From Alphaproteobacteria bacterium (GTDB lineage Bacteria; Pseudomonadota; Alphaproteobacteria; MPNO01; UBA830), in the NCBI GenBank assembly GCA_965221485.1, contig OZ244893.1, forward strand, positions 3,515,726-3,579,725: a DNA stretch of 64,000 nt. The letters are read 5' to 3'. The notes under the pieces are model-generated. The model was not told where the DNA came from. It made no database searches and saw only the letters and a list, made by a program, of their open reading frames with translations. Shown here piece by piece: positions 13,191-40,071 of this stretch (the stretch's first letter is position 1; each line of letters opens with the position of its first letter). The translations under genes and the position numbers were made by a program.

Positions 13191-13888
13191 GACCGGTTAT
13201 CCTGATCGTTGAGGACGAGCCGGCCCTTGTCGAGGTCCTGCACTACAACTTCCAGAGAGCCGGTTTCGAGGCCCTGTCATCAGACAATGGCGAGGATGCC
13301 CTTCTGGTTGCTGAAGAACGTTCGATTGACCTCGTCATTCTGGACTGGATGTTGCCGGGAATGTCCGGCATCGAGGTGTGCCGCCAATTACGCCGCGGTC
13401 CGGCGACGAGCAGCGTCCCGATTATCATGCTGACTGCCCGGGGAGAGGCGCACGATCGCCTTCGAGGATTTGAAACGGGAGCAGACGATTACGTGACCAA
13501 GCCCGTGTCTCCCGAGGAACTGGTGGCCCGCGCCCGAGCTGTGCTGCGTCGGACGCGCCCGGCTCTCTCTGCTGAGATCCTGAGTTACCGGGATCTCAGG
13601 ATGAACCTGAGCGAACACAAGGTCACACGAGGTCAACGACAGATTCATCTCGGACCCACGGAATTCAGGTTGTTGCGGCATTTCATGGAATATCCGGGGC
13701 GGGTCTTTTCGAGAGATCAGTTGATCGACTCCGTCTGGGGGCATGACATCTTCATTGATTCGAGGACTGTTGATGTACATATCCGGCGGTTGCGAAAGGC
13801 CCTCAACCGGGATCGGGAAAAAGACTTCATCCGCACTGTAAGATCAGCCGGCTACGCGCTTGATGCCGACGCCAAGGCGCCTGCCTGA
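13187..13888 (+). CDS. phoB: Phosphate regulon response regulator PhoB (OmpR family)
   Basis: Receiver domain 'ILIVEDEP...DLVILDWMLPGMSG' and a winged-helix OmpR/PhoB C-terminus. It is the last gene of the phoR-pst-phoU-phoB unit. Confidence 0.9.
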   Translation: MRPVILIVEDEPALVEVLHYNFQRAGFEALSSDNGEDALLVAEERSIDLVILDWMLPGMSGIEVCRQLRRGPATSSVPIIMLTARGEAHDRLRGFETGADDYVTKPVSPEELVARARAVLRRTRPALSAEILSYRDLRMNLSEHKVTRGQRQIHLGPTEFRLLRHFMEYPGRVFSRDQLIDSVWGHDIFIDSRTVDVHIRRLRKALNRDREKDFIRTVRSAGYALDADAKAPA

Positions 13889-14048
13889 AGTTCCGCCACG
13901 ACGGAACGACCCGCGGCAAATGAACAACACAACGCGCCTTGCACATGGTATTACGGCGACGGTCCGAACCCTGATTGACGATCTGTCATGAGGCGAACAC
14001 CAGGTCTCGACGCAGGCGGCCGGGACTCGCTGAATGCACCGGGGTGTG

Positions 14049-15263
14049 TCAGGAGTGGGCGCGTTCCCAGTCGACCATGTAGTCTCTTGTTTCGGGGGTT
14101 GCGTACCGGTCCTTGGCCAACTGCAGCTGGAACACCATCTGATCGTCGAAACGGAAACTCATTTCGCAGCCCAGCAGATAGAATTCCCACATGCGGCAGA
14201 ATCGCTCGTCATACATTTCGGCGACTGTCGAGCGATTTTCGCGAAACCGTCGGTGCCAGTGCCTGAGGGTCTCGGCATAGTGCGTCCTGAGAATTTCGAC
14301 ATCCGTGGAAATCAGTCCGGCCTGCTCAAGCGCGGTGAAGACCTCGGAAAGCGCTGGTGTGTAGCCTCCCGGGAAGATGTATTTGCGAAGCCATGCATTG
14401 GTATTTCCGGGTTCAGTGAAACGACCGATCGAATGAAGCAACATGACCCCCCGGTCGGTGAGAAGTCGTCGAACATGGCGAAAGAATTCCAGATAATGAC
14501 GGGCCCCTACATGTTCGAACATGCCGACGGAAACGATACGGTCGAAGGGCCCCGTAACCTCCCGGTAATCCTGCAACAGAAACCGGACCTGGTCCTTCAG
14601 GCCGGCATCCTGCGCCCGCTGGACCGAAACCTGGTGCTGTTCACGTGACAGGGTGACGCCGGTCACGTTGGCGCCGGTCTCGCGTGCGAGGTACAGGCCC
14701 AGGCCCCCCCATCCCGAGCCGATATCGAGCACACGCATACCGGGTTCCAGAAGGAGCTTGGAGGCAATATGGCGCTTCTTGGCATGCTGCGCCTGGTCAA
14801 GGGTGGTATTGGTGTTCGGGAAATAGGCGCAGGAATATTGCCGGTCTTCGTCGAGAAACAGATCAAAGAGGTCGTCCGAAAGATCATAATGATGGGCGAC
14901 GTTGGTTTGTGCCCTGCGAATCGGATTATGTTGCTGAATGGGCCGTGCGATATGGCGAATAAAGGCAGTTGCTGCCTTGCCGAGGGGGCCCTCGCGGCGC
15001 AGATTGCGAATATTGTGTCCGACAAACTCGAAGAAATCGGAGATGTCTCCATTCTCCACGGTCAGGGTGCCGTCCATATAGGCTTCGCCAATGGCAAGTC
15101 TCGGATTGAGACCCAGCCGCCTGTGCAATGCCTTGCTGTGCAGACGCACCGTCAGGGATGGTTGTGCTGAAGCGTCCCCGAAACTGTGCCGTCGCCCCTT
15201 CGCATCGATCAGGACGAGATGACCAGACGTTACGAAACGCTCAAGAAAATTCGCAACGAGCAT
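14049..15263 (-). CDS. cfa: Cyclopropane-fatty-acyl-phospholipid synthase family SAM-dependent methyltransferase
   Basis: SAM-binding motif 'VLDIGSGWGGLGLYLA' and a CFA-synthase C-terminal region. The internal Met at 15263 (RBS GAGAGAGAAGG) gives the canonical ~404 aa; the longer ORF to 15608 carries a low-complexity extension. Confidence 0.82.
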   Translation of the reverse strand: MLVANFLERFVTSGHLVLIDAKGRRHSFGDASAQPSLTVRLHSKALHRRLGLNPRLAIGEAYMDGTLTVENGDISDFFEFVGHNIRNLRREGPLGKAATAFIRHIARPIQQHNPIRRAQTNVAHHYDLSDDLFDLFLDEDRQYSCAYFPNTNTTLDQAQHAKKRHIASKLLLEPGMRVLDIGSGWGGLGLYLARETGANVTGVTLSREQHQVSVQRAQDAGLKDQVRFLLQDYREVTGPFDRIVSVGMFEHVGARHYLEFFRHVRRLLTDRGVMLLHSIGRFTEPGNTNAWLRKYIFPGGYTPALSEVFTALEQAGLISTDVEILRTHYAETLRHWHRRFRENRSTVAEMYDERFCRMWEFYLLGCEMSFRFDDQMVFQLQLAKDRYATPETRDYMVDWERAHS

Positions 15264-25290: not shown

Positions 25291-25329
25291 TAGTCTGGAC
25301 CCTGAAGACGGGGGGATTTCTTTGCTAGC

Positions 25330-26130
25330 ATGAAGGTCAGGATTGGCAATTTCGAGATAAATTATGAGGTCTGCGGGCCCGAGAAAGCCCCCTGGGTTAC
25401 GTTCAGCCATGCTCTTGGAAACAATTTGTCTCTATGGGATGAACAGGTGGCCTTGCTCTGCGACCGGTTCCGCATCCTGCGCTACGATCACCGCGGCCAC
25501 GGCGCGTCAGACGCACCTCCCGGCCCCTACAGCTTTGACGATCTCGAACGGGACGTGATCCAGCTGCTGGATCATCTCGGTATCGAGCGTACGCACTGGG
25601 TCGGCCTGTCCATTGGCGGTATGCTTGGTTACGGCCTTGCCCAGCATAATGGCGAGCGACTTCTCTCGCTTGTTGCCTGCGATTCACGGCCGGATGCACC
25701 GCCTGACTATGCGGCTTATTTCCAGTACCGTATCGACACGGTGCGAGCCGGCGGTATGGAGGCAGTCGTGGAGCCCACAATCGAGCGGTGGTTCACACCG
25801 AAGACACGACAGAGCAATCCGCCGGTTCTCGACAAGGTGAGAGCCATGTTGCGAAGCACCAGTGCGGAGGGTCATGAGGGATGCTGCGAGGCCCTGAAGC
25901 GGCTTTCCTTCGGATCCGGCCTCAGCCGGATCGCTATCCCGGTTCTGGTTCTCGGCGGGGCGGAGGACAAGGGAGCGCCTCCTGATGTCCTTGCCGAAGC
26001 CGCGGCGGCAATCCCCGACAGCCGACACGTGATCATCGAGGCGGCGGGACATATTTCCAATCTGGAGAATCCGAAGGCCGTAAACCGGGCGCTGGAGGCG
26101 TTTTACAGGGAGATCGGCGATGTATCTTGA
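25330..26130 (+). CDS. Alpha/beta-fold hydrolase (3-oxoadipate enol-lactonase / meta-cleavage-product-hydrolase-like)
   Basis: Nucleophile elbow 'GLSIGG', HGxxxxxxxW-type oxyanion region 'FSHALGNNLSLW' and 266 aa. The stop overlaps the start of the next gene. Confidence 0.8.
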   Translation: MKVRIGNFEINYEVCGPEKAPWVTFSHALGNNLSLWDEQVALLCDRFRILRYDHRGHGASDAPPGPYSFDDLERDVIQLLDHLGIERTHWVGLSIGGMLGYGLAQHNGERLLSLVACDSRPDAPPDYAAYFQYRIDTVRAGGMEAVVEPTIERWFTPKTRQSNPPVLDKVRAMLRSTSAEGHEGCCEALKRLSFGSGLSRIAIPVLVLGGAEDKGAPPDVLAEAAAAIPDSRHVIIEAAGHISNLENPKAVNRALEAFYREIGDVS

Positions 26131-26650
26131 ATCAGCTCCCCCTCCTGATGGCCCGCGCGGGTCCGACATCATTGCCGCGATCAAGGCTGCCAGCGTTTCA
26201 CATGTTGCCGCGTTGCCCGATATCACGACCAGTGAGGGTCTTCTTCGGCCATTGTCGCAGGATTCGGATCTGCGGCTCATTCGCCTCAGCAAGGAGGATG
26301 AGGGAGTTTCCATCTGCGCAGGGCTAGGGTATTGCGAAAAGCGCGCCGTGTTGCTGATGCAACAGACCGGGCTGATGGACTCTCTCAATGCGGTGCGCGC
26401 CATTGCCGTCGATTATCAGCAGCCCATTTGCATGCTTGTGGGCCTGCTCGGAAAAGAGCCTGATCGCGCCCCCCGCGAGTCTGACAGTTACGGTGTGCGC
26501 ATCATCGAACCGATCCTCGAGGCCATGGAAATCGATCACCTGCTTGTCGAATCCCCGGGTGATGTTGACCGGATCACACCGGCAATCGACCGGGCCTACC
26601 AGCAATCCCGTCCGTTGGTGGTGCTGTTCGGGAAGTGGATCCGCCAATGA
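26120..26650 (+). CDS. Sulfopyruvate/phosphonopyruvate decarboxylase alpha-subunit-like protein (TPP enzyme N-terminal Pyr-domain half, ComD-like)
   Basis: 176-aa protein matching the N-terminal (pyrimidine-binding) half of TPP-dependent 2-oxo-acid decarboxylases split as in ComD. RBS GGGAGA; overlaps the hydrolase stop. Confidence 0.68.
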   Translation: MYLESAPPPDGPRGSDIIAAIKAASVSHVAALPDITTSEGLLRPLSQDSDLRLIRLSKEDEGVSICAGLGYCEKRAVLLMQQTGLMDSLNAVRAIAVDYQQPICMLVGLLGKEPDRAPRESDSYGVRIIEPILEAMEIDHLLVESPGDVDRITPAIDRAYQQSRPLVVLFGKWIRQ

Positions 26651-27228
26651 TGCAGCGCAGGGAGTGTTTCGAGAGAATTGCCGAACTGCGGGGAGGCGCC
26701 ATCGTTGTCGCAACCTACACCTCTGCATTCGAATGGCGCAGCGTCGATCCCAGCCCTCTGAATTTCGTGAGCATCGGTGCCATGGGCCAGGCATCGTCCC
26801 ATGCGCTGGGGCTTGCCCTCGGACTGTCGGATCACAGGATCATCGTACTGGACGGCGATGGCAGTCTGCTCATGAATTTGTCGAGTCTGGCCACCATTGC
26901 GAACGCTGCCCCCTCAAACCTGCTTCACTTTGTTATCGAAAACGGGACCTACGAAGCCAATGGCGGACATCCGATTCCGGGGCAGGGACGGATCGACTTT
27001 GCCGGACTGGCCCAGGCTGCAGGATATCCCGCGGTCTACAGTTTCGAAGGTATCAACCGCTTCGCTTCAGACCTGCCGGGTGTCATGGCAGCCCGGGGAC
27101 CCGTATTTGCCGCCCTGAAGGTGGAAGCCGGGACGGCGCCTCCGGTCGAATATGATTACGAATGGTTGCACAGCGAAGATCGTCGCAGTGAATTTCGGGA
27201 GGCCATTCGGCCATACATCCGGCCCTGA
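26647..27228 (+). CDS. Sulfopyruvate/phosphonopyruvate decarboxylase beta-subunit-like protein (TPP-binding PP-domain half, ComE-like)
   Basis: TPP-binding motif 'GDGSLLMNLSSLATIA..N' (GDG-X24-N) and ~193 aa. The ATG overlaps the comD-like stop as ATGA; the ORF-track start is GTG 26635. Confidence 0.68.
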   Translation: MMQRRECFERIAELRGGAIVVATYTSAFEWRSVDPSPLNFVSIGAMGQASSHALGLALGLSDHRIIVLDGDGSLLMNLSSLATIANAAPSNLLHFVIENGTYEANGGHPIPGQGRIDFAGLAQAAGYPAVYSFEGINRFASDLPGVMAARGPVFAALKVEAGTAPPVEYDYEWLHSEDRRSEFREAIRPYIRP

Positions 27229-27417: not shown

Positions 27418-28794
27418 TCAGACCGGCTGGAACAGAAGGTCAGGCAGATAGGTTGCAATCTCGGGGTACATCATGATCGCGACCATCGCGATGAGCATCA
27501 GGATCCAGTACGGAACCGAACTTCTGAATATCGTCATGACATTGATGTCCGGATCAATACCCTGAATCGCAGACTTTACGGTATAGACGAGCAGCCCGAA
27601 CGGCGGGGTCAATAATCCTGCTTCGATGGCAATGATTGCGATAACCGCGAAAGCGATGGGATCGTAACCCAGCTTGACCGCAATCGGAGCGAAGATGGCT
27701 GCTGTGAGCAGCATGATCGAGATCGAATCGATGATCATGCCGAGGGCAAACCAGATCAGGACCATTACGGTCAGGATCATCCATGGAGCCATGGCTCCGT
27801 TCAGGAATACACCCTCAATGGCGTTGGTCACGCCGGTCATTGCGAGCGTTCGGGAGTAAAGGGCAGCGGTGACAAGTAACAGGAGTATCGGTGCCGATGT
27901 ACGGCCGACCGACAGTACGGCATCAATGAACTCCCGCAGACGCATACCCTTGATGATTCCCAGAAGGAGCCCGATGAAGGCGCCTGCGCCTGCGCCTTCG
28001 GTCGGAGTGAAAACACCAAACCAGATCCCGCCCAGCACGACAACGATCACGAGAAGGATACCACCGAGGCTGACGAGGAACTGGAGCGTGGAGACCTCCT
28101 CCTCCCCTGCAACCGCAGCCTGGTCCGCTTCCGACTGGTTCCGGTGCGTGGTCCCGATACCAACAAGATCGGGTCTCAGCACCGAGACAGAAAATGCGTA
28201 AATGACGAACAGTGTCGTCAGAAGAAGCCCGGGCAGGATGCCGGCGGCAAAGATTTGCCCGATGGACTGTTCGGTGAGGATGCCCCAGACGATCATCAGG
28301 ACGCTGGGAGGAATCAGCATGCCGAGGCAGCTTGAACCGGCAACAGCCCCCAAAGCGAATCCGCGGTGGTATCCGAACCGTTTCATTTCCGGGTAGGCAA
28401 TACGGGAAAATGCGGCAGCCGATGCAATGCTCACGCCTGTCACAAAGGAAAACAGCGCGTTTCCGAGGACGGTCGCAATGGCCAGCCGGCCGGGCAGCCG
28501 GTGCAGCAGCCGGTTGATACCCCGGTAGACGTCGGTGACAGTGCCGGACTTGCCGATGAACTCGCCCATCAGCATGAAGAGCGGAATCACCGCGAATACA
28601 TAGGCGCGGATAGCCTCATAGGCCGTCGCTGCCAGCATGGTCTGTACGGTCTCGAAAGCGTAGGAGTCCGCGCCTGTCACGATGAAGATGCCAAGTGCGC
28701 TCGTCATGCCGAGGGCAATGGCAATATGGACGCCGAGAGCGACCAGGGCGACCAGACAGATGACCAGCAAAATGGCGACGTTGGCTTCGAACAC
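27418..28794 (-). CDS. dctM: TRAP transporter large permease DctM
   Basis: 458-aa 12-TM DctM-family protein; conserved motifs throughout. Confidence 0.9.
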   Translation of the reverse strand: MFEANVAILLVICLVALVALGVHIAIALGMTSALGIFIVTGADSYAFETVQTMLAATAYEAIRAYVFAVIPLFMLMGEFIGKSGTVTDVYRGINRLLHRLPGRLAIATVLGNALFSFVTGVSIASAAAFSRIAYPEMKRFGYHRGFALGAVAGSSCLGMLIPPSVLMIVWGILTEQSIGQIFAAGILPGLLLTTLFVIYAFSVSVLRPDLVGIGTTHRNQSEADQAAVAGEEEVSTLQFLVSLGGILLVIVVVLGGIWFGVFTPTEGAGAGAFIGLLLGIIKGMRLREFIDAVLSVGRTSAPILLLLVTAALYSRTLAMTGVTNAIEGVFLNGAMAPWMILTVMVLIWFALGMIIDSISIMLLTAAIFAPIAVKLGYDPIAFAVIAIIAIEAGLLTPPFGLLVYTVKSAIQGIDPDINVMTIFRSSVPYWILMLIAMVAIMMYPEIATYLPDLLFQPV

Positions 28795-28828
28795 CGTTCG
28801 GGTTTCCTATTCCGGAATTCTGATAGCG

Positions 28829-29347
28829 CTAGTCAACGCCATCATCGATGTCAGACTCCGGCATATCCGGTCGAACCACATCGATATAGGCCATGACGCC
28901 GTAATTCACCAATGCGAGGCCGCTCCCGATGAGAACGGTCCAGCGGGCCGGCCATGAGGGGACCCGTAAAGCGCCTTCCCCTTCAAATTCACCGTCGACA
29001 TAGGAGCGGATGCTCTCTTCCCATCCGCCCGTGATGATCATCAGAAAAAATGCCGCACCCAGAAGATAGCCAAAGGCAAGCAGGGCTCTCTGGACCCAGT
29101 CCGGAAAGTGGGTCACGAGGAACTCGGCTCTCAGCATGGACCGGCTGCGGATCGCGTAGCCCGCCTGCAGGAACACGACGATCACCACAGAGGCACTGAC
29201 CATTTCCACGGTTCCGTAGATTGGCCGGTCGAAGGCACTCCGTCCGATGATGTCGCCCAGCACCAGGAACACGAGGGCGAAAGCCCACAGTGCCGCCAGG
29301 ATCATGAGGATCTTGGAGATGCGATCACTCAGCGTTACGAGATTCAT
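28829..29347 (-). CDS. dctQ: TRAP transporter small permease DctQ
   Basis: ~172 aa with four TM helices, lying between dctP and dctM. The internal Met at 29347 is preferred over ORF start 29398; the start is uncertain. Confidence 0.7.
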   Translation of the reverse strand: MNLVTLSDRISKILMILAALWAFALVFLVLGDIIGRSAFDRPIYGTVEMVSASVVIVVFLQAGYAIRSRSMLRAEFLVTHFPDWVQRALLAFGYLLGAAFFLMIITGGWEESIRSYVDGEFEGEGALRVPSWPARWTVLIGSGLALVNYGVMAYIDVVRPDMPESDIDDGVD

Positions 29348-29501
29348 AGGGACGTTCCATGAGACAGCGGATCGCGGCAGAGATGACTGCCGCGACACGC
29401 TCCGGGATGACGGCCGGGGCCTGCTGCTGAAAGCCCCGGGCGTCGGGCGACCGAACGCGCTTGCCGGTCAACCGGCAAAAGTCATGCCGTTTGTGAACGG
29501 A

Positions 29502-30590
29502 TTACTTGATGACGTAGCGAACCGGCCACTGGTAACCCTGCTTCTCGGCCGCTGCAAGATAGGCGTTAAGAATCTTCTTTGCTGGCAAACCCTGCTTTTC
29601 CAGCATATCGGCGTGTGCCTGCGGCCAGTGGGCCAGACTCTTTGCCCAGGCAAGACGGACATCGGCAGGAAGATCGGAAACAGTGATATTTTCCCGCAAC
29701 CAGGCCATGTCTTTCTCGTACCCCGCCTTGTTCGCGGTGCCCGTTTTGGTCTCGAAACGATCGGCGACTTCCTGAACGATGACCTTCACTTCGTCGGGCA
29801 AACGTTTCCAGAACCGGTTGTTGACCGTAAGACCATGCCAGGTGATCGAGCCGAACCCGATCGTGGTGTAGTACTTGCCGACTTCCCACAACCCGAACGT
29901 CTTCCCCCAGGCACTGGGGAACATGATGCCACCTTCGGCAACACCGGTCTTGAGCTTCTGGTACCAGCCCGGCAATCCGTCGGTGACCGGAACGATACCG
30001 ATACCGGCCTGCTTCATCCAGTTGAGGTTGAGGCCGGCCCCGAGGATCTTTCGTCCCTTCAGGTCATCAAGTTTTTTCCATGGAAACTGGGTGCCCAGGT
30101 TGTAGCCGCCATCACCGATCAGTGCGATGAGAGTCTGGTTGAAATCCTGGAACCGGGCTTCAAGGATGGGAAACTGTGCGTAGACATCAGCTGCCGCTCC
30201 GACACTCTGGACCGGATCCATTGTCCCGAATGGCAACATGATCTGAAATGCGTGCATGGGCAGTTTGGAGGCTTCGAAGCAGTAACAGAAGCCGCCAATA
30301 TCCACGACGCCGTTCTGGACACCTTCAAGGGTATCGAAAACCTTGACAATGGAACCGCTGTAGCCCTCGATAAAGTTGATCTTGTGCGTGGTTCTCGACT
30401 CCACGGCTTTCTTCAACTCGGTCTGGAAAAACGTTTTCATCAGTCCCGCATAGACCACCGTCGGCGGGTGACCGGAAGCGATACGGATATTGATTGTCTT
30501 GGCGCTGACAGACGTCGCGCCGAAAGCGATGGACGCGGTGAGCAGGGCCGCGCCTGACAGTTTCAGCGCGTGTCTCGAAATTCTTTTCAT
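29502..30590 (-). CDS. dctP: TRAP transporter substrate-binding protein DctP family
   Basis: 362 aa with a signal peptide (AALLTASIAFGATSVSA) and the DctP/SBP_bac_7 fold. First gene of dctPQM on the minus strand. Confidence 0.85.
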   Translation of the reverse strand: MKRISRHALKLSGAALLTASIAFGATSVSAKTINIRIASGHPPTVVYAGLMKTFFQTELKKAVESRTTHKINFIEGYSGSIVKVFDTLEGVQNGVVDIGGFCYCFEASKLPMHAFQIMLPFGTMDPVQSVGAAADVYAQFPILEARFQDFNQTLIALIGDGGYNLGTQFPWKKLDDLKGRKILGAGLNLNWMKQAGIGIVPVTDGLPGWYQKLKTGVAEGGIMFPSAWGKTFGLWEVGKYYTTIGFGSITWHGLTVNNRFWKRLPDEVKVIVQEVADRFETKTGTANKAGYEKDMAWLRENITVSDLPADVRLAWAKSLAHWPQAHADMLEKQGLPAKKILNAYLAAAEKQGYQWPVRYVIK

Positions 30591-30912: not shown

Positions 30913-31527
30913 TCAGGCAGACTGGTCGAGGGGCCAGTGCGGTGCAGCATCCTCTTCCACCTGGGCGTCGAAGGTGATCAGGGCCGCAGCCGTCATGGCA
31001 TAGGATCCCATCGTATAGACCAGATCGACCAGCATGCGCCGGTCAAAATGCGCTGCCAGTCTGGCGTAGGTCTCTGAAGATACCCGATGGGTTCCGAACA
31101 ACTCGCGCCCAAGACCGATAATTGCGGCTTCGACCGGGTCGAGCGCGTCGATCGCACCACGTGTGCTGATCGCTTCGATTGTCGCCTCGGACACACCGGA
31201 CTTTCGCGCTGCTCCGGCGTGGGCTGCCCATTCAAACCGGCAGTGATGCTCCCGGGCCGTGGTCAGAATGGCCACCTCACGGTAGCGCGCCGGGATCCCC
31301 GACCCGTTCCGGAGGTAGTGATTGAGCGGCCTTGAATGGGCGCAGAGACCGGGGCTGTGAAGCTGGATGCCGCCCGGACCCCTGAGGCCTGCGAGAGATC
31401 CCCCCTCGGGGTCTGCCAGGACGTCAAACATGGCCCGGGTTGCGTCATCGAGCTCGTCGCGCCGCGGCAGGGGCAGGCGGCTACCGGATTCCGGATCAAT
31501 ATCCGGATTGGTTGGCGGTTCTTTCAT
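30913..31527 (-). CDS. Carboxymuconolactone decarboxylase (CMD/AhpD-like) family protein
   Basis: CMD core 'EVAILTTAREHHCRFEWAAHAGAARKSG' and 204 aa. Confidence 0.72.
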   Translation of the reverse strand: MKEPPTNPDIDPESGSRLPLPRRDELDDATRAMFDVLADPEGGSLAGLRGPGGIQLHSPGLCAHSRPLNHYLRNGSGIPARYREVAILTTAREHHCRFEWAAHAGAARKSGVSEATIEAISTRGAIDALDPVEAAIIGLGRELFGTHRVSSETYARLAAHFDRRMLVDLVYTMGSYAMTAAALITFDAQVEEDAAPHWPLDQSA

Positions 31528-31566: not shown

Positions 31567-32547
31567 TCAGATATCAAGGCGAAATAGCCGTACGGCATTG
31601 GTGCGCCCGATCTTTTTCCGGTCCGCCTCACTGATCGTGCAGGTGTCGAACCACGCCGCAGCGTGGTCGACATTCTCGAAAGGCCAGTCGACCGAAAACA
31701 GGATTCGGTCGGATCCCACTTCGAGCATGGTATTGATCAGCGCCTGGGTCCGGAAATTCCCCGATGTCGTAATATAGAAATTGTCCTGAAGATACTCGGC
31801 GAACTTGCGCTTTGCGGGATAACCGGGGGATGCCTCGGTCCATCCGTTCCGGTTGTCGCAGCGCCAGATGCTGAAGGGGAGGCCTTCACCCATGTGCCCC
31901 AGGACGATTTGCAAATCGGGGTGTTCGTCAAAAATTCCCGATGCCATCAGGCGCAGCGCGTGAACCGCGGTCTCCTGTCCAAACGCCCAGGTGGGCCCCA
32001 GCAACCACGGGTGGCCTTCATAGATTTGCGCCATGCTCGGCAATGGATTCCGGGGGTGAAGGTAAAAGGGAACATCTAGATCCGCGATGACGCTCCAGAA
32101 CGGTCGATACTGGGGCAGATCGTAATAATAGGCCGTATCGGGCTCGTCGATCTGTGAAAATCCGTTGACCATCGTTCCCACGAAGCCCAGATCCCGGACG
32201 CACCGCTCCATCTCCCCGCAGGCCGCGTCCACATCCTGCAGTGGCAGGGCGGCAAAACCGCGGAACCGTGAAGGATGCCTCGTGACCCATTCCGCCAGCG
32301 CATCATTGGCGCGACGGGCGATATCACGGGCCTTTTGCCGATCGGGGATGGCCTGGATCGCCGGCGCATTCAGCGACAGAATCATCAGCTCAACGCCATG
32401 CTTGTCCATCTCCTCAAGGCGCCGGCCCTCGATGTCGAGAATCCGCTGAGAGAGTTCCTTCCAGGTAAAATCAGGCAAGAAGCCCTGGGAGTCTGTCAGT
32501 GTTTCCTCGGTCGCGAAATGCTCCTCAAGAGCAATCTTTCCCTTCAT
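31567..32547 (-). CDS. Amidohydrolase-2 family non-oxidative (hydroxy)aromatic-acid decarboxylase (ACMSD / gamma-resorcylate / 2,3-DHBA / IDCase-type)
   Basis: N-terminus 'MKGKIALEEHFATEE' is the hallmark metal-binding start of this decarboxylase subfamily. Has 'HPW', 'HMGE' and 'DWPF' metal and active-site motifs; RBS GGGAGA. Confidence 0.8.
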   Translation of the reverse strand: MKGKIALEEHFATEETLTDSQGFLPDFTWKELSQRILDIEGRRLEEMDKHGVELMILSLNAPAIQAIPDRQKARDIARRANDALAEWVTRHPSRFRGFAALPLQDVDAACGEMERCVRDLGFVGTMVNGFSQIDEPDTAYYYDLPQYRPFWSVIADLDVPFYLHPRNPLPSMAQIYEGHPWLLGPTWAFGQETAVHALRLMASGIFDEHPDLQIVLGHMGEGLPFSIWRCDNRNGWTEASPGYPAKRKFAEYLQDNFYITTSGNFRTQALINTMLEVGSDRILFSVDWPFENVDHAAAWFDTCTISEADRKKIGRTNAVRLFRLDI

Positions 32548-32821: not shown

Positions 32822-35152
32822 CTATTCTGCTGCCACCCTCTGTTGCTGGCTCTTTTCGCGCAGCGCCTTCAGGACCTTGGGCGGCGACATGGGATGGTCG
32901 CGGAGCCGAACGCCCACGGCGTCATAGATTGCGTTCGAAATCGCTGCGAGCGGCGGGATAATGGGCACCTCCCCGATGCCTCGGACCCCGTAGGGATGAT
33001 CCGGGCTGGGGACTTCCACGATCTCCGTGCTGATGAAGGGCACATCGGAGGCCACCGGAACCCGGTAGTCAAGGAAGCTGGGATTCTCCAGCACGCCCTT
33101 GTCGTTGTAGATATACTCTTCATTCAGTGCGAACCCGATACCCTGAACCGCTCCGCCCTGAAACTGGCCCTTGATGAATTCGGGATAGAGCGCACCTCCG
33201 GCATCCTGGACAATCGTATAGCGCAAGACCTTGACCGCACCGGTTCGGGTATCCACCTCGACATCGACCATGTGGGTTCCGAATCCTGGTCCTCCCTGGG
33301 CTACATTGATTTCCGCGTGACCGGCAATGGTGCCTCCGAACCAGGCCGCTTCGCGCGCGAGTTCGGCAACCGACAGGGGTTCGAAATCTCCTACATTTGC
33401 GCCGGCAGGCCGGGCTTTGCCGTCTTCCCAGACCACCTGATCCGGTTCGACCTCCCACTTGCGTGCAGCGATTTCGCACATCCGCGCGATTGCGTCCCGG
33501 GATGCCTTGACGGCAGCCATGCTACCGGCTGCAGTTCCGCGACTTCCCGCCGTCATGAAGTTGAAGCCCAGCGTGCTCGTGTCGCCGGACATGGTCCTCA
33601 CCTTTTCGAATGGAATTCCCAGCTCCTCGGCCACGATCATGGCGAGGGCCGCACGGGACCCTCCCGTTACGTCAACCGTGCCGAATATCAGGGTTGCGGT
33701 TCCATCCTCACCGATATTAAGCGTCGCGGATGTTTCGGCTCCAAGGGTAAACCAGAAGCCGGACGCAATGCCGCGGCCCTGATTGGGCCCGAGTTTTTCC
33801 TGGCGGTGCGGGTGAGACCGTATGCGCTCTAGCGTCTCGATGAAGCCAATCGGGCCCAGTTTGGGACCGAAATGGGTTTGCGTGCCTTCCTTCGCTGCGT
33901 TCCTCAACCGGAAGTCGACCGGATCCATTCCCAGTGATTCCGCAAGTTCGTCAATCACGGTTTCGACGCCGAACGCCACCATGGGCGCCCCTGGCGCACG
34001 ATAGGCCGCGACCTTGGGGCGGTTGGTCGTGACGTCATGTCCAACGACCCGGACATTCTCGATATCGTAACGGGTGAACACCGTGATGGTGGCAAGCGGG
34101 AGAGACGAACCAGCATAGGCGCCGGACTGGTAGTTCAGCTCCGCCTCTGCGAAGGTGATCCGGCCTTCCCTGTCAGCACCCATCCGGACCTTCACGTTGG
34201 TCCCGGAGGTCGGACCGGTGGCCCGAAAGACCTCGTCCCGATCCATCACAATGCGGACCGGTCGCTTTGCCTTTCGTGACAGGACCACGGCAACCGGTTC
34301 CAGATACACATTGTTCTTTCCGCCGAACCCACCGCCGATTTCTGTCGGTGTCACCTTGACCCTTGAAATATCCATTTTGAGCAGCTTGGCGATCTGGGCA
34401 CGGAATACAAAGTGACCCTGGGTTGCCGTCCAGACTTCGGCATAGCCGCCTTCGGTGTAGTTGGCGACGCAGGCCTGTGGCTCGATGTAACCCTGGTGAA
34501 CCGGCTTGGTATTGAATTCGCGCTCGATGATAATGTCCGCTTCGCTCTCGCCCTTCTCGATATCGCCAAGCGCGCTCTGCAGTCGTGCTGCCACGTTCGA
34601 CGGTTTGGAGGGCGCCGGATCGACACCGCGTGTGAACTGATCGGCATGCAGCACCGGTGCGTCGGGTTGCATGGCTTCCACAACATCGATGACATGAGGG
34701 AGAACTTCGTACTCCACCTTGATCCGCTTCATTGCCTCGCGTGCGATGGCTTCGCTGCTTGCCGCGACCGCGGCCACGGGATGGCCGTCATACAGGACGT
34801 TTTCGCGGGCCATCATGTTACGCGTCACATCCCGAAAATTGACCATGAGTTCCCCGGAAGCCGCATGTTCGACCTCCATGTCCGGAAAGTCGTTGCGCGT
34901 GACGACGGCCTTGACACCCGGAAGACTCTCGGCCTCAGATGTGTCAATGGAGAGGATGTTGGCGCGGGCGTGCGGACTGCGGAGAACCTTTCCGAACAGT
35001 TGTCCCGGGAGTTTGATATCGGCCGCAAACCGGGCGCTGCCGGTGACCTTGTCAACAGCATCGCCGCGCGCTGTCGGGTTCGAACCGACGATCTTCAGTT
35101 CCTTCCGTTCGTACGGAATTCTGGTGGCGTAGGGTGACGGTGCCCGTCCCAT
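32822..35152 (-). CDS. Molybdenum hydroxylase large (molybdopterin-binding) subunit, xanthine dehydrogenase / CoxL family
   Basis: 776 aa with an aldehyde-oxidase/XDH a/b-hammerhead and MoCo-binding domains. Active-site loop reads 'VAAYRAPGAP', which is neither form I VAYRCSFR nor the typical XDH motif. Confidence 0.85.
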   Translation of the reverse strand: MGRAPSPYATRIPYERKELKIVGSNPTARGDAVDKVTGSARFAADIKLPGQLFGKVLRSPHARANILSIDTSEAESLPGVKAVVTRNDFPDMEVEHAASGELMVNFRDVTRNMMARENVLYDGHPVAAVAASSEAIAREAMKRIKVEYEVLPHVIDVVEAMQPDAPVLHADQFTRGVDPAPSKPSNVAARLQSALGDIEKGESEADIIIEREFNTKPVHQGYIEPQACVANYTEGGYAEVWTATQGHFVFRAQIAKLLKMDISRVKVTPTEIGGGFGGKNNVYLEPVAVVLSRKAKRPVRIVMDRDEVFRATGPTSGTNVKVRMGADREGRITFAEAELNYQSGAYAGSSLPLATITVFTRYDIENVRVVGHDVTTNRPKVAAYRAPGAPMVAFGVETVIDELAESLGMDPVDFRLRNAAKEGTQTHFGPKLGPIGFIETLERIRSHPHRQEKLGPNQGRGIASGFWFTLGAETSATLNIGEDGTATLIFGTVDVTGGSRAALAMIVAEELGIPFEKVRTMSGDTSTLGFNFMTAGSRGTAAGSMAAVKASRDAIARMCEIAARKWEVEPDQVVWEDGKARPAGANVGDFEPLSVAELAREAAWFGGTIAGHAEINVAQGGPGFGTHMVDVEVDTRTGAVKVLRYTIVQDAGGALYPEFIKGQFQGGAVQGIGFALNEEYIYNDKGVLENPSFLDYRVPVASDVPFISTEIVEVPSPDHPYGVRGIGEVPIIPPLAAISNAIYDAVGVRLRDHPMSPPKVLKALREKSQQQRVAAE

Positions 35153-35166
35153 GATTCAGTCCTTTC

Positions 35167-35643
35167 CTATCCTGCCCGCATGTCCCGCGCGGCATCCTGA
35201 ACAGCTTCGACGACCTTGTGGTATCCGGTACAGCGACACAGGTTACCGGCCAGCCAGTAGCGGATCTCTTCTTCCGTAGGGTCCGGATTCTCCTTGAGCA
35301 GAGCCTTTGACGCGATCAGAAGTCCGGGCGTGCAGATGCCACATTGGAGGGCGACATGTTCAATGAACTGGTGTTGCAGGGGATGCAGTTCTTCGCCTTG
35401 CGCCATCCCCTCGATCGTTTCGATACTCTTGCCCTGTGCCTCGACCCCCAGCATGAGACAGGAGCAAATCAGAACATCGTCGACGATAACGCTGCACGCA
35501 CCGCAATCTCCTGTTGCGCACCCTTCCTTGGTGCCGGTGAGATCGAGCTCGTCACGCAGAACGTCAAGCAGGGTTTGCGTGGTATCGCAGAGGAACTCTG
35601 CTTCGTCCCCGTTGATTGTGGTGGTGATGTGATGTTTCGCCAT
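35167..35643 (-). CDS. Molybdenum hydroxylase small subunit, two [2Fe-2S] clusters (CoxS-like)
   Basis: Cys patterns 'CATGDCGACSV' and 'CGICTPG...CRCTGY'. The start overlaps the stop of the FAD subunit (TGATG). Confidence 0.9.
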   Translation of the reverse strand: MAKHHITTTINGDEAEFLCDTTQTLLDVLRDELDLTGTKEGCATGDCGACSVIVDDVLICSCLMLGVEAQGKSIETIEGMAQGEELHPLQHQFIEHVALQCGICTPGLLIASKALLKENPDPTEEEIRYWLAGNLCRCTGYHKVVEAVQDAARDMRAG

Positions 35644-36500
35644 CAGGATATTGCCCTCTCGCGTGCGATTTCGGCGGCCCGCCCGGCAAGCACACCGGCG
35701 ACTTCCTTGCGGAACTCGATGGTTCCCCGCTTGTCATTGATGGGTCGGCAAGCTGCGCTGGCGGCCTGCGACAAGGCTTCTTTCGCGTCTTCATCGACAG
35801 ATGTGCCCACCAGGGCCCGGGCAGCCGGCTCGACAACCAGGGGGCGGGGGGCCACAGCTCCCAGGGACACGCAAGCGTCCGTACACACTCCGTTCTGATC
35901 AAGGGTCAGGTTGACGGCTGCGCCGACGACAGCGATATCCATCTCGGTTCGTGGCGTGAAGCGCAGATAGGCGTCGCCGGACCGGGGTTTCCGTGCGGGC
36001 AGGTTGAAACTGACAACAATCTCACCCCTGGAAAGGGATGTCTGACCGGGTCCTGTAACAATGTCCTCGACCGGCGCCGTCCGGCGGCCGGAGGGACCGG
36101 CAATCGTGACTGTGGCACGGGCTGCAATCAGTGGTGGCACGCTGTCGGCAGCTGGTGAAGCGTTGCAAAGATTGCCCCCCATTGTTGCCCGTCCGCGGAC
36201 CTGCAGCGAGCCGATCAATCTGACACCGTCCATGATACCGGGCCAGGCGGCGCCGAAGCGTGGATGGTCCATCAACTCCTTGCCGGTTACGGCGGCCCCA
36301 ACCTGCCATTCACCGTTCGCTTCCGTAATCGCGCGCATCTCGGCAATGCCCTTGACGTCGACGATCAGGGCCGGGTCAACCAGGTCCGAATGCATCTGAA
36401 CCAGTACGTCGGTGCCGCCTGCGAGTACGCGTGCCGCGCCCGGCTCGTCCGCGATCAGCGAGCAGGCCTCATCAAGGCCCGCCGGTACGTGATACTTCAT
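35643..36500 (-). CDS. Molybdenum hydroxylase medium FAD-binding subunit (CoxM-like)
   Basis: FAD_binding_5 and CO_deh_flav_C domains ('AGGTDVLVQMH', 'MGGNLCNASPAADS'). The Met at 36500 gives the canonical ~285 aa. Confidence 0.85.
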   Translation of the reverse strand: MKYHVPAGLDEACSLIADEPGAARVLAGGTDVLVQMHSDLVDPALIVDVKGIAEMRAITEANGEWQVGAAVTGKELMDHPRFGAAWPGIMDGVRLIGSLQVRGRATMGGNLCNASPAADSVPPLIAARATVTIAGPSGRRTAPVEDIVTGPGQTSLSRGEIVVSFNLPARKPRSGDAYLRFTPRTEMDIAVVGAAVNLTLDQNGVCTDACVSLGAVAPRPLVVEPAARALVGTSVDEDAKEALSQAASAACRPINDKRGTIEFRKEVAGVLAGRAAEIARERAIS

Positions 36501-36586
36501 GGTGATTGCTCTTCGCTCCTGTTGCATGATCAGGGTTCGGCCAAAGACCGCCGCGCAGTTCCGGCCGGAGTCTCCCCGTCTCTGTA

Positions 36587-37297
36587 TCAGCCATCATCGC
36601 CGAGGGCCAATGCATTTCTGTAAATGTCGTCATACATCAGATGCTGCACTTCCAGCATCTGCCTGACCGTCTTGAGGACAAGTCTGCGTTCCCTGGTGCT
36701 GGTGGCGAACTGGTCGAGCAGTTTTCTGCCGACATCCGAATGTTCCTGGTCGGCGCTGTCATGTATGACCCAATAGGCGACGGCTTCATCACTCAGGCCG
36801 AACTGATCCTGGAGATTTCGGGCGATCCGGATGTAGAGGCCAGGAATCGCGGCCTCCCCTGCAAGCATGTGCGCAGCAACTCCTTCAAGGAAACTCTTTT
36901 GGCAAATCAGCGTGAAATACGCCTGAAACGCGACCACGCCCGCACAGTATGGCGGATCATACATGTCTTCAGGCCCGAGTTTCATACCCTTGGCGTAATT
37001 GAGATAGAGCCGGTGATGCGAGACACCGTCTGACATCAGCCGGCCAGTCGCCTCCTCATAGGCGACTTCGGCGATCATTTCCCGCCACACGGGGTCGGGA
37101 CATATGACATAGAGATTACCGTGATAATTGTGGTTGTGCAGGGGGATCCCGCCATGTTGCTGACAAATGTAGCGGGATTGCTCCCAGTTCCAGGTCCCTT
37201 CGACCATACCGGTCCACAACGCATGACCGTACATCGGCAATTCCCTGTGAATTTCGGAAATCCCGTCAAGTACATCCTGCGTGGTGAGGTCCGTCAC
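36587..37297 (-). CDS. Heme-oxygenase-like fold protein (PqqC/TenA/iron-containing redox enzyme family; candidate diiron oxidase)
   Basis: All-helical ~237-aa protein with paired E/H-containing helices (AYEEATG..HH, AHMLAGE, HDSADQEH) typical of this fold. Inferred start is GTG 37297 after GGAGGA; the longer ORF to 37471 has a non-homologous leader. Confidence 0.5.
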   Translation of the reverse strand: MTDLTTQDVLDGISEIHRELPMYGHALWTGMVEGTWNWEQSRYICQQHGGIPLHNHNYHGNLYVICPDPVWREMIAEVAYEEATGRLMSDGVSHHRLYLNYAKGMKLGPEDMYDPPYCAGVVAFQAYFTLICQKSFLEGVAAHMLAGEAAIPGLYIRIARNLQDQFGLSDEAVAYWVIHDSADQEHSDVGRKLLDQFATSTRERRLVLKTVRQMLEVQHLMYDDIYRNALALGDDG

Positions 37298-38346
37298 TGC
37301 ATCCTCCAAGATATGGCAACAAAATATGACGGGGTTGGCAGGCTCTGTCGAGTCCTGCGCCTCCGGGGCGATTGACGGCTGGTGGCTTGAGGGCCTCGAA
37401 AATCTCCGGATCTGACGCGAAACCGGACAGCTTCCCCAACCCGGACCTATATTGGCTGGGAACCACACCAACTACGGATGTTCCCATGACCCGGAGCGAG
37501 GCCACCCCGGCCAGTCCTTTCGCCCTTCGAAGCGATTTGAAACCCGTGTTGCGGAGGCGAATGGCCTGTGATCGCGCCTCTTCCGTCGCCACTACCAGAG
37601 AGGGGACGCTCTCCCGTCGCGGATCCCGGTGAAATGTTCAATACGATCCGTTCCATGGCCTGGAACCGGGGAGCGGAGACGCTCTCTTCCGGCTTGTTTC
37701 CTGATCTCTTCGACGATCCCGAATGATTTCCATGCACGGCGTAACAAGGGGTGCCGGAAGGCATGCTCGACCGGTTTCGTGAGCATAGGCAGGTGCCGAT
37801 TGCGGCGCCGATGGACAGTCAATCAGCAGGGACAACAGGGAGCGGCGATCCGGCCAGCTGTGACGTTGGCAAGGCGACCGGGGGCGCCAGCATCACATGG
37901 CGCTGGTTATGGAGAGGTCTCTGATCGGAATCCCGAGGCGTGATACCCCGAGGTCTTGATACAGGGAGTGATCTCCGGGATACCCGAGGCAGCGGCTCAG
38001 GTGACCAGCCCCCGGGGTCGATGACGGGCATCAGGGCCCCCAGCCGGCTGCAATCCCGGATCCAGTCTTCAGATCGTGATCAGTCCACTGATAACCGGGG
38101 TCTTGCGATTCCTGACCGTCGTCAGGAGATCGCGCTGACGGGTGTCTGGATCACGGACTGTCGGCGTCCGGTCAGGAATCAGGACTGAATGCCGGGACGG
38201 GCGTTGGCCCCGGTCTCGCTGGCAGGGTGTCGCCTGGCACTACGTCGGATGACCCGCGCTCTCAATCATCGGAATACAAAGTCAATATGAAATCCGTAAC
38301 CGGCGCTTTTGATCCTTGCCATCCTGTGGCGCCAGTACACGCGGCG

Positions 38347-38904
38347 CTAAAATAATTTGATCAATGCAACGATCAGTCCACCCTGGGCAATCAAGGCGCC
38401 CAACAACCATTTCAACATTTCAGCCTTGACCGCTTCGATGTCAGCCTTGGTTTCCTGGCGAAGGGCATCCATCTCGGCCTTGATTTCCTGGCGAAAGGCA
38501 TCCATGCCGGCTTCAACCGCTGCGATGGCCGCCCTGGTTTCCTGGCGAAGGGCATCCATCTCGGCCTTGATTTCCTGGCGAAAGGCATCCATGCCGGCTT
38601 CAACCGCTGCGATGGCCGCCCTGGTTTCCTGGCGAAAGGCATCCATGCCGGCCCTGGTTTCCTGGCGAAAGGCATCCATGCCGGCCCTGGTTTCCTGGCG
38701 AAAGGCATCCCTGCCGGCCATGGTTTCCTGGCGAAAGGCATCCCTGCCGGCCTCAATCGCTGCGATATCAGCCTTGGTCGCCAGGTTGGCGTTGAGAAGA
38801 GCGACATGCTCTTCTGCCAGGGTTTCCGCCTGTTGCTCGGTGAAGCCACTCTCCGTCAGACGCTTCACGAAACGGTGGGTGTCGAAGGCGATCGCTTCAG
38901 TCAT
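38347..38904 (-). CDS. DUF1640 family coiled-coil membrane-anchored protein with expanded internal repeats
   Basis: N-terminus 'MTEAIAFDTHRFVKRLTESGFTEQQAETLAEEH' matches DUF1640. It has a C-terminal TM helix and a central run of 11-residue repeats (DAFRQETRAGM). Confidence 0.62.
   Translation of the reverse strand: MTEAIAFDTHRFVKRLTESGFTEQQAETLAEEHVALLNANLATKADIAAIEAGRDAFRQETMAGRDAFRQETRAGMDAFRQETRAGMDAFRQETRAAIAAVEAGMDAFRQEIKAEMDALRQETRAAIAAVEAGMDAFRQEIKAEMDALRQETKADIEAVKAEMLKWLLGALIAQGGLIVALIKLF
38449..38754 (-). repeat. In-frame tandem repeat array inside the DUF1640 gene: 2 x 87 bp followed by 4 x 33 bp (near-identical units based on ggtttcctggcgaaaggcatccatgccggccct)
   Basis: Read directly from the sequence: units start at 38449, 38536, 38623, 38656, 38689 and 38722. 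The 87-bp units are themselves built from 33-bp-like sub-repeats. Confidence 0.85.
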
Positions 38905-39228
38905 GGCCAGAGTATAAGCTTCGCCCCGCCCCGGGACAAACTTTACTGCCATCCACCCAGGGTATTTGTCTGCTACTCTCCAATGGAAAAACCCATACGC
39001 GCGAATACTACGTCGTGCGGCAGCCACCACCCGCCTGGCCCATCCGCTCGGTTGCGTATCCGGCGCCGCGCCGACGGCGGGTTTGCCCGCAGACCTGCCT
39101 GGACATGGATACGAATTTTCCCTGCTGACGAACCTGTATCGGATAGTCCAGGAGTCCTGTCGCGGCGGTTATGGCGAGGACTGAAGTGGGAGATCCCGTC
39201 CGGACCGAATAATGTTGGAGTAAGCTTT

Positions 39229-40071
39229 TCAAAAATCCGTCGAATTGCGGTTGACGGCCTGAAGACCCGGTCGATATGTCTTCTTGTCGAGAAACTCTTC
39301 CATTCCGCGTGCCCGCGTTTGCTCCCCGTCACGAAACTGAAGCGCCTGGATTTTCGTCATCAGATACTCGTAGGACTGCGGCACGTCCATGTTGACGACG
39401 GCGCGAAGAGCCTGTTTTGTAAAGGCCAATGCAACCGGGCTCTTTTCCATCAACTCCCGCGCCAATGCGACTGTCTCCTCGCGCAATTGGCCGGCGGGCA
39501 CCGCCAGATCGGCAAGGTTCATTTCGACGGCCTTCCGCCCATCGAATGTCCTTCCGGTCATCGCGTAGAACATCGCATTGCGGAATGGCATGCGATCGAC
39601 AATGACCTTGGAAACAATGCCGCCCGGAATGATGCCCCAGTTGATTTCCGACAGGCCGTAAATGGCGTTCTCTGCTGTTATCACAATGTCGCAGTTTGAA
39701 AGGGGGACAAATGCGCCCCCGAAAACGTAACCGTTGACCATCGCGATCGTCGGCTTGCGGGAGTTCGTCAGAATGTCCCAGCTCCAGTGCTTGTTGGCAG
39801 TGAACGAGCGGAACTGGGCTTCGGGGTCGTTGTCGGTTTCCCGGAAATACTCTTTCAGGTCCATGCCTGCGCTCCAGCTTTCCCCGGCTCCGGTCAGAAC
39901 AATGACTTTGGCGGCCGGATCCGTTTCCATGGCCATCAACACATTTTCCATTTCGTAGTGGAGCGTCGGATTCATCGCGTTTCGTTTTTCCGGGCGGTTG
40001 AACGTGACCCAGGCGATTCCGTCGTCGTCGATCTCGAGCTTCACGCATGTCAGACTGTCTTGCAATTTCAT
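39229..40071 (-). CDS. ech: p-Hydroxycinnamoyl-CoA (feruloyl-CoA) hydratase-lyase homologue, crotonase superfamily
   Basis: Strong end-to-end similarity to HCHL/Ech ('VTFNRPEKRNAM', 'VLTGAGESWSAGMDLKEYFRE', 'GLSEINWGIIPGG', C-terminal 'KTYRPGLQA'); 280 aa. Confidence 0.8.
   Translation of the reverse strand: MKLQDSLTCVKLEIDDDGIAWVTFNRPEKRNAMNPTLHYEMENVLMAMETDPAAKVIVLTGAGESWSAGMDLKEYFRETDNDPEAQFRSFTANKHWSWDILTNSRKPTIAMVNGYVFGGAFVPLSNCDIVITAENAIYGLSEINWGIIPGGIVSKVIVDRMPFRNAMFYAMTGRTFDGRKAVEMNLADLAVPAGQLREETVALARELMEKSPVALAFTKQALRAVVNMDVPQSYEYLMTKIQALQFRDGEQTRARGMEEFLDKKTYRPGLQAVNRNSTDF

Follow-up and report, generated by a model that had tools for sequence, protein, structure and literature searches.

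A 64,000-nt stretch of an alphaproteobacterial genome (contig OZ244893.1; hereafter, the window) carries a trio of genes at positions 25330–27228 of the plus strand, which encode a PcaD-like α/β-fold serine hydrolase and two proteins, alpha and beta, matching the two halves of a split thiamine diphosphate (ThDP)-dependent enzyme. On balance, we favour the view that this trio is one operon for two consecutive catabolic steps, the opening of a lactone or ester and then the decarboxylation of a 2-oxo acid. Alpha and beta are predicted to assemble into a ThDP-binding hetero-oligomer that splits CO2 off a 2-oxo (or 2-imino) acid. Two-chain ThDP decarboxylases are already known, the nearest characterized ones being RhiEF, ComDE and AzcBC. 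The clade of the window pair, the close coupling of its genes to one for a lactonase or esterase and their repeated occurrence in catabolic clusters for aromatic and heteroaromatic acids appear undescribed in the literature that we searched, in which we found no pairing of a hydrolase with ComDE-like genes and nothing relevant on PDB entry 9u8q or AzcBC.

Organization of the hydrolase, alpha and beta genes

In the window, 53 open reading frames (ORFs) were called, of which 43 were scanned against Pfam; the remaining ten were judged from their translations alone and appear to be housekeeping genes. The hydrolase gene (266 aa; putative enol-lactonase or esterase) occupies positions 25330–26130, the gene for alpha, the pyrimidine-binding (PYR) half of 176 aa, positions 26120–26650, and the gene for beta, the diphosphate-binding (PP) half of 193 aa, positions 26647–27228, all on the plus strand. 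The overlaps between them, read directly from the sequence, are as the first-pass annotation had described: the hydrolase stop codon (TGA, 26128–26130) lies 11 nt within alpha (overlap 26120–26130), and an ATGA at 26647–26650 is common to the alpha stop and the beta start. That annotation had outlined its feature as 26120–27228, an interval that holds alpha and beta and leaves the hydrolase outside, upstream. The 11-nt overlap is consistent with translational coupling. A Shine-Dalgarno-like motif (GGGAG) is found 7–12 nt 5' of the alpha ATG at 26120. For beta, an alternative GTG start at 26635 would give 197 aa; the ATG at 26647 is favoured because homologues begin with MMQR or MMRR.

A promoter scan returned no promoter-like matches, and a terminator scan returned a single weak terminator-like hairpin with a T-run after mltA, at 25300–25313; nothing else suggests that the trio forms a separate transcription unit. 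Beta has more than 100 cluster representatives at 65–77% identity and 3718 matches with E ≤ 1e-5; relatives are so numerous that alpha and beta must be real genes and not chance ORFs.

Alpha and beta as halves of a split ThDP enzyme

Alpha scores 23.2 bits against Pfam TPP_enzyme_N, under the cut-off of 26.8, and 89.2 bits (E = 2.5e-25; cut-off 147.95) against the ComD model TIGR03845; it also matches RhiE (9iz3_A) with E = 1.3e-4. A KEDE motif (K58-E59-D60-E61) and a Q-TG-DS-N-R motif are kept in at least 90% of 62 homologues. Judging from the position of the motif, Glu61 presumably activates the cofactor. Beta scores 50.9 bits against Pfam TPP_enzyme_C (cut-off 21.9). Its Mg/diphosphate motif, of the form GDG-(X24–27)-N, consists of GDGS (residues 70–73) followed by ENG (98–100) and is invariant in 24 homologues, as is the segment Y102-E103-A104-N105-G106 (YEANG). 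The latter aligns with MHESTGG of RhiF and LYESGGG of AzcC, and an N-x-x-[Y/H]-E-[A/S]-x-G-G segment is common to beta and these two structurally characterized split decarboxylases.

An AlphaFold2 model of beta (pLDDT 86.6, pTM 0.87) was compared with solved structures using Foldseek. The top match was RhiF with thiamine pyrophosphate (9iz4_B; TM-score 0.82), followed by AzcC (9u8q_G; 0.76). In approximately 70 related loci, alpha was likewise called directly 5' of beta and in the same orientation. The comparisons of sequences and models confirm that the two ORFs, as previously annotated (176 and ~193 aa), are the PYR and PP halves of a split, two-chain ThDP enzyme of the ComDE/Ppd type. The two chains would assemble into a heteromeric ThDP/Mg2+-dependent enzyme with ThDP at the PYR/PP interface, where the GDG...N residues of beta would hold the Mg-diphosphate.

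The closest solved structure is thus that of RhiEF from Bacillus subtilis (9iz3/9iz4). RhiF, however, is only 25% identical to beta and falls in a separate clade of the tree described below, and no phosphoenolpyruvate (PEP) mutase gene was seen in the window. AzcBC of Streptomyces (9u8q–9u8s), which we describe from the PDB title, has the same two-chain architecture and fold; in contrast to the window pair, it belongs to an actinomycete natural-product biosynthetic setting, and AzcC is 23% identical to beta. AzcBC is an α-imino acid decarboxylase, and thus the split family has already diversified beyond sulfopyruvate and phosphonopyruvate. The first-pass annotation had spoken of an undescribed use of this enzyme type; this stands for the window clade and its pairing with a hydrolase, but not for the family as a whole, for which AzcBC is already a third use.

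Among the longer beta representatives searched, no convincing Rosetta-stone fusions with partner enzymes were found; what turned up were proteins in which a frameshift had probably joined beta to a downstream TctC or FAD protein, and one permuted beta–alpha fusion. One single-chain relative (P0264, 371 aa) is permuted, its PP domain preceding the PYR domain, opposite to the order in fused phosphonopyruvate decarboxylases.

Relationship to sulfopyruvate and phosphonopyruvate decarboxylases

The best-scoring NCBIfam models for alpha and beta are those of ComD, ComE and Ppd, and JGI pipelines give close homologues the corresponding names. The pair might then be a genuine sulfopyruvate decarboxylase, acting in the degradation of sulfolactate, cysteate or 2,3-dihydroxypropane-1-sulfonate, or a phosphonopyruvate decarboxylase, acting in the synthesis or degradation of phosphonates, with the hydrolase a mere neighbour. 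TauD-family genes that adjoin alpha and beta in three related loci (L025, L038 and L055) would fit this explanation, as would the presence of a fused protein above the Ppd cut-off (P0260) among the nearest 150 cluster representatives. We nevertheless consider it very improbable.

All of the matches to these models are far under the curated cut-offs. Beta reaches 100.3 bits against ComE (TIGR03846; cut-off 221.5), and against the Ppd model (TIGR03297; cut-off 312.5) beta and alpha reach 112.3 and 34.7 bits, respectively. ComDE, known from coenzyme M biosynthesis in Methanocaldococcus jannaschii and from bacterial sulfolactate degradation, resembles the window pair in having adjacent PYR and PP genes of about 170 and 190 aa, but the window proteins fall 40–55% under its equivalog cut-offs, and no coenzyme M or sulfonate genes were seen nearby. 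To our knowledge, an α/β-hydrolase partner belongs to no described ComDE pathway.

To place the pair within its family, an exhaustive beta search was made over clusters at 50% identity, which yielded 4134 representatives at E ≤ 1e-3, about 2000 at ≤ 1e-10 and 75 at ≤ 1e-30; by our estimate, RhiF (59.7 bits) would fall near the 1e-10 limit. Of ten representatives sampled from among the nearest, nine are no closer to the ComE and Ppd models than the window beta is, and P0260 alone passes the Ppd cut-off. In a distance-based neighbour-joining tree of 145 sequences, built without bootstrap values and without a verified ComE anchor, the RhiF fragment clusters with P0260, far from the coherent clade into which the window beta and all fetched loci fall.

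The gene content of the window points in the same direction, and here the first-pass annotation was borne out: neither PEP mutase, Xsc, SuyAB, sulfolactate dehydrogenase nor coenzyme M genes were seen among the 43 Pfam-scanned ORFs and the ten read as translations. The only phosphorus genes in the window are those of phosphate uptake (pstCAB-phoU-phoB, at 8.8–13.9 kb). The TauD protein of L025 scores 108.6 bits, against 313 for taurine dioxygenase. Full-length TPP proteins encoded near relatives of the pair (cluster c6) were considered as Xsc candidates and rejected, with 108–230 bits against a cut-off of 676. Because the scores are low, the clade is separate and the partner genes were not found in the window, these comparisons indicate that alpha and beta belong neither to the genuine sulfopyruvate decarboxylases nor to the genuine phosphonopyruvate decarboxylases. 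They also indicate that the names sulfopyruvate decarboxylase and phosphonopyruvate decarboxylase, routinely given by pipelines to genes of this clade, are wrong for it; such mislabelling inflates the sulfonate and phosphonate metabolism inferred from marine and soil metagenomes.

Conservation of the trio across genomes

A pattern scan with one genome per species returned 80 loci, all from metagenome-assembled genomes (MAGs) and mostly from Alphaproteobacteria; the context evidence for the trio comes from MAGs and metagenome contigs. Genes in related loci were called approximately, by codon-usage scoring, and their products were clustered and checked by tblastn. Greedy longest-ORF calling was discarded because it took a spurious 255-aa ORF over alpha and beta; the codon-usage caller itself still placed, in some loci, a spurious antisense ORF (cluster c7) across beta.

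Among loci with beta at least 64% identical, a PcaD-like gene lies 1305–1320 nt 5' of the beta start in nine (the window, L002, L003, L006, L007, L008, L009, L014 and L021); a tenth trio locus, L088, was found via the hydrolase. In the related loci, the hydrolase and alpha are spaced by +4 nt or, in L007, −11 nt. The flanks vary: Tim44-MltA and a TRAP transporter in the window, Tim44 and an integrase in L088, RecD2 and a class IV aminotransferase in L002, RecQ and CMD-ZnuA in L003, and in a group of four (L006, L009, L014 and L021) RecQ, an unassigned gene, a luciferase-like monooxygenase, a 2-hydroxyacid dehydrogenase and two CMD genes. The coupling to the hydrolase is no local accident, for it persists in ten loci whose flanks are of several kinds. 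Many uncultured bacteria from marine and soil habitats carry the trio, and among uncultured Alphaproteobacteria it is abundant; some homologue clusters contain 140–230 sequences, and one orthologue was met on contigs in 39 index blocks.

In L088 (positions 8001–11103, from a 6.1-Mb genome), BipA, PfkB, EI24, FxsA and Tim44 genes are followed directly by the trio, without MltA, and then by a phage-type integrase gene and a restriction-modification gene. This layout suggests that the trio occupies a site where islands insert.

A sister lineage (beta 68–74% identical), to which Defluviicoccus MAGs belong, has a different hydrolase gene 1260–1309 nt 5' of beta in seven loci. Its product belongs to the SABP2/hydroxynitrile lyase/methylketone synthase group and has no detectable similarity to the PcaD-like protein. 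It looks like a non-orthologous replacement that keeps the hydrolytic function, and the occurrence of an unrelated esterase in the same position argues for a functional rather than a historical link between hydrolase and alpha/beta. The cluster in this lineage consists of a PaaK-like CoA ligase, an unassigned gene, a D-2-hydroxyacid dehydrogenase, a Rieske oxygenase, the esterase, alpha, beta and a convergent Amidohydro_2 gene.

Two further loci (L028 and L023) have a CMD gene 5' of alpha in place of the hydrolase and an Amidohydro_2 gene after beta. The two CMD proteins are 33% and 31% identical, respectively, to the CMD protein of the window, and the CMD gene of L028 overlaps the alpha start by 4 nt. 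The L028 region (6494–13546) contains a LigB-family ring-cleavage dioxygenase gene, a 131-aa ORF on the opposite strand and then the coupled CMD, alpha, beta and Amidohydro_2 genes, with a CitMHS transporter gene after the last of these and two TRAP DctP genes upstream. For the Amidohydro_2 protein of L028, the greatest similarity is to the diiron hydroxylase PtmU3 (139 bits).

Upstream and downstream genes in the wider clade

In the wider clade (beta 50–59% identical), the gene directly 5' of alpha encodes an amidase in L043 and L049, a HisC-like aminotransferase in L051, L076 and L084, and a GMC oxidoreductase in L068 and L079. A class II aldolase gene holds this position for second copies of the pair in L010 and L018, and elsewhere it is held by a gene for a Bug/TctC binding protein. 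Aldehyde dehydrogenase genes come directly after beta in L051, L076 and L082, and one adjoins the pair on the short L062 contig; UbiD genes follow beta in L031, L033, L047 and L052. The second pairs of the Defluviicoccus-like genomes L018 (14903–18193) and L010 lie in aldolase–alpha–beta operons that are divergent from a LysR gene and convergent with a TRAP DctM gene.

Hydrolysis of an ester, lactone or amide, transamination and hydroxy-acid oxidation can each yield a 2-oxo acid, and aldehyde dehydrogenase consumes the product of its decarboxylation. The earlier proposal that the window hydrolase releases a 2-oxo acid for the decarboxylase fits this family-wide pattern of upstream genes.

ThDP enzymes of this fold also commonly ligate, and alpha and beta could instead be a carboligase or C–C lyase whose product the hydrolase processes. 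There are models for such an arrangement, namely MenD (a ThDP enzyme) followed by MenH in menaquinone synthesis and the acetoin dehydrogenase E2 with its α/β-hydrolase domain. The hydrolase does match MenH and the hydrolase domain of AcoC weakly (58 and 72.8 bits). Its gene comes first in the operon, yet the reactions need not follow the order of the genes. The matches to MenH and AcoC, however, score far below that to PcaD (given below), and the operons of aminotransferase, alpha/beta and aldehyde dehydrogenase (L051, L076 and L084) fit a route in which an amino acid becomes a 2-oxo acid, then an aldehyde and finally an acid. In addition, all three characterized members of the split family (ComDE, RhiEF/Ppd and AzcBC) are decarboxylases (PMC12141560; PDB titles). 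On this evidence a ligase or lyase is unlikely, and from the pattern of upstream and downstream enzymes together with the chemistry of these three members we infer a decarboxylase.

Identity of the hydrolase and its possible substrate

The hydrolase matches Pfam Abhydrolase_1 with 115 bits. Its best solved relative is PcaD of Burkholderia xenovorans (2xua; 163.8 bits, E = 4e-47), with which it shares fold, size and the Ser-Asp-His triad (nucleophile in GLSIGG, Asp in GAEDKG, His in GHISN). Against TIGR02427, the model for 3-oxoadipate enol-lactonase, it scores 254.9 bits, 1 bit short of the cut-off of 255.85. It may thus be a true 3-oxoadipate enol-lactonase of a β-ketoadipate-type pathway, with alpha and beta acting on an unrelated substrate and the linkage due to co-regulation or inherited synteny. 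One such route would run from γ-resorcylate through resorcinol, hydroxyquinol and maleylacetate to 3-oxoadipate, and an orthologue of γ-resorcylate decarboxylase is indeed encoded 4.3 kb downstream of beta.

Several observations argue against this assignment, to which we give little credence, and make it quite unlikely. The β-ketoadipate genes pcaB/C/G/H/I/J/F and catABC were found neither among the window ORFs nor in the loci of hydrolase orthologues (L086–L092), and hydroxyquinol dioxygenase and maleylacetate reductase were not seen in the window. Orthologues of the hydrolase, which are abundant at 62–79% identity, are labelled by NCBI merely as α/β fold hydrolase; unlike PcaD, they sit with alpha/beta or in clusters of molybdenum hydroxylase (Mo-hydroxylase), CoA ligase and UbiD, and not in pca operons. 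Whatever the flanks, the hydrolase gene keeps its 4-nt gap to, or 11-nt overlap with, alpha, and an unrelated esterase takes the same position in the sister lineage.

A hint at the substrate comes from those hydrolase orthologues (63–68% identical) that occur without alpha/beta, in clusters with Mo-hydroxylase, CoA ligase, enoyl-CoA hydratase and UbiD genes and, in two cases, UbiX. The carriers are the cultured Faunimonas sp. B44, Propylenella binzhouense and a very widespread type of metagenomic contig (L086, positions 2085–14971; L087; L089/L090). The core of the cluster consists of a three-subunit Mo-hydroxylase (with a CoxG domain), an MBL-fold protein, a cupin, the hydrolase orthologue and a second α/β-hydrolase, and its variable members are enoyl-CoA hydratase, AMP-forming CoA ligase, UbiD, UbiX and MaoC. 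In another genome, the hydrolase orthologue directly follows UbiD. As judged from the encoded proteins, this gene set matches the pathway for furoate and 2,5-furandicarboxylate.

The described furoate (Trudgill) pathway (hmfABCDE/FG) shares with these clusters a Mo-hydroxylase, an acyl-CoA ligase, a thioesterase of the enoyl-CoA hydratase type and UbiD; the described route differs from the proposed one in having no ThDP decarboxylase, and the window has no UbiD gene and a Mo-hydroxylase that is not orthologous. The lactone intermediate of the pathway is a one-carbon-shorter analogue of 3-oxoadipate enol-lactone, which would fit a hydrolase that misses the PcaD cut-off by 1 bit. In the pathway, 5-hydroxy-2-furoyl-CoA tautomerizes to this lactone, whose '(spontaneous or catalyzed)' hydrolysis gives 2-oxoglutaroyl-CoA, a step with no assigned enzyme (PMC3223595). 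On the strength of the furoate-like clusters and the lactone analogy, we propose an enol-lactone of this kind as a candidate substrate of the hydrolase and the 2-oxo diacid that it would yield, or a substituted relative, as that of alpha/beta; these hints by analogy are the weakest link in the argument. The Mo-hydroxylase and enoyl-CoA hydratase cluster of the window itself was rejected as an orthologue of the furoate-like clusters (27% and 25% identity).

Proposed pathway

In the two-step operon that we favour, the PcaD-like serine hydrolase would open a lactone or ester, the likeliest substrate being an enol-lactone that closely resembles 3-oxoadipate enol-lactone, such as one of the 5-oxo-4,5-dihydrofuran-2-carboxylate type. 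Hydrolysis would give a 2-oxo (di)acid of the 2-oxoglutarate type, which alpha/beta would then decarboxylate non-oxidatively to an aldehyde (semialdehyde), and housekeeping aldehyde dehydrogenases would oxidize the latter. This order of steps and the nature of the substrates follow from the comparisons above and are what we infer, whereas the domain identities, cofactor motifs, gene coupling, conservation of the trio and separation from ComDE and Ppd were observed directly.

Several points weigh against this proposal. No conserved aldehyde-consuming gene was found beside the trio in its own lineage, and in the wider family the gene upstream of alpha is divergent or distant for 30 of 72 alpha genes. 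The proximity of the hydrolase to the PcaD equivalog cut-off matters here as well: the product of 3-oxoadipate enol-lactonase is a 3-oxo acid, which is no substrate for a ThDP decarboxylase. With a window Mo-hydroxylase only 27% identical to its furoate-like counterpart, the hydrolase is left as the sole basis of the furoate analogy, and plain 2-oxoglutarate as a product would seem to need no dedicated decarboxylase.

A broader reading, which we put forward tentatively and with considerable doubt, is that the trio provides an undescribed CoA-independent, two-enzyme route in (hetero)aromatic degradation. An enol-lactone arising after ring hydroxylation or cleavage would be converted by the PcaD-like lactonase to a 2-oxo dicarboxylate and by a dedicated heteromeric ThDP decarboxylase to a semialdehyde. 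The wider clade, with about 75 cluster representatives at E ≤ 1e-30 and sequences in the thousands, would then be a radiation of substrate-specific 2-oxo-acid decarboxylases behind differing unmasking enzymes (esterase, lactonase, amidase, aminotransferase or oxidase). Knowledge of the substrates would fill a gap concerning lactone and ester intermediates of aromatic and furanic compounds in oligotrophic bacteria, and would add a new class to a small, structurally tractable ThDP family of interest for biocatalysis.

Genomic surroundings of the trio

The first-pass annotation had placed the pair in an aromatic-catabolism context and had remarked on a convergent TRAP transporter. The aromatic context holds on one side only, downstream, where γ-resorcylate decarboxylase, CMD and Mo-hydroxylase genes are found; upstream of the trio are housekeeping genes (BipA, PfkB kinase, EI24, FxsA, Tim44 and MltA). 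The TRAP genes are present as stated, at 27418–30590 on the minus strand and convergent with the trio (DctM, 27418–28794; DctQ, 28829–29398; DctP, 29502–30590; identified by Pfam), but their adjacency is conserved in no related locus: the window TRAP proteins had no cluster partners in approximately 85 of them.

The genes that follow are also on the minus strand. A CMD-family protein of 204 aa (Pfam CMD, 40.7 bits) is encoded at 30913–31527. It was considered as a PcaC equivalent and dropped, since NCBIfam gave just a weak 'peroxidase-related' match. The γ-resorcylate (2,6-dihydroxybenzoate) decarboxylase orthologue (Amidohydro_2, 326 aa; 31567–32547) matches 2dvt over its full length (536 bits, E = 2.9e-160), and no NCBIfam model scored for it. 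Of the genes on the aromatic side, only these two recur near the trio elsewhere. In L006, L009 and L014, an orthologue of the window CMD protein (56–58% identical) is encoded at a distance of about 4.3 kb from beta, and another CMD gene lies directly 3' of beta in L003; L003, L006 and L014 have γ-resorcylate decarboxylase orthologues (74–76% identical) encoded 5–8 kb from beta, the intervening genes being different. The two genes are possibly associated with the trio, and their recurrence, which is weak evidence, may reflect either function or synteny within the lineage.

Further downstream, profile matches identify a three-subunit Mo-hydroxylase (large subunit, 776 aa; 2Fe-2S subunit, 158 aa; FAD subunit, 294 aa) followed by a haem-oxygenase-like 'iron-containing redox enzyme' of 294 aa (32822–37471), an enoyl-CoA hydratase (39229–40071), an acyl-CoA dehydrogenase (40167–41327) and an FAD monooxygenase (41412–42608). 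The best match of the large subunit is the alpha subunit of 4-hydroxybenzoyl-CoA reductase, with 468 against 994 bits. Taken together, the genes at 32822–42608 suggest an island for the degradation of some aromatic or heteroaromatic acyl-CoA. Within this interval, a 227-aa ORF (38347–39030, minus strand) has a middle part made of repeated 'AGMDAFRQETRA/IKAEMDALRQET' units, a coiled-coil-like tandem repeat. Beyond it, at 43690–45710 on the minus strand, a 267-aa protein whose match to citrate synthase is confined to the C-terminal part of the latter is encoded beside a 406-aa family III CoA-transferase; the two could be a lyase/transferase pair of the citryl-CoA or citramalyl-CoA type.

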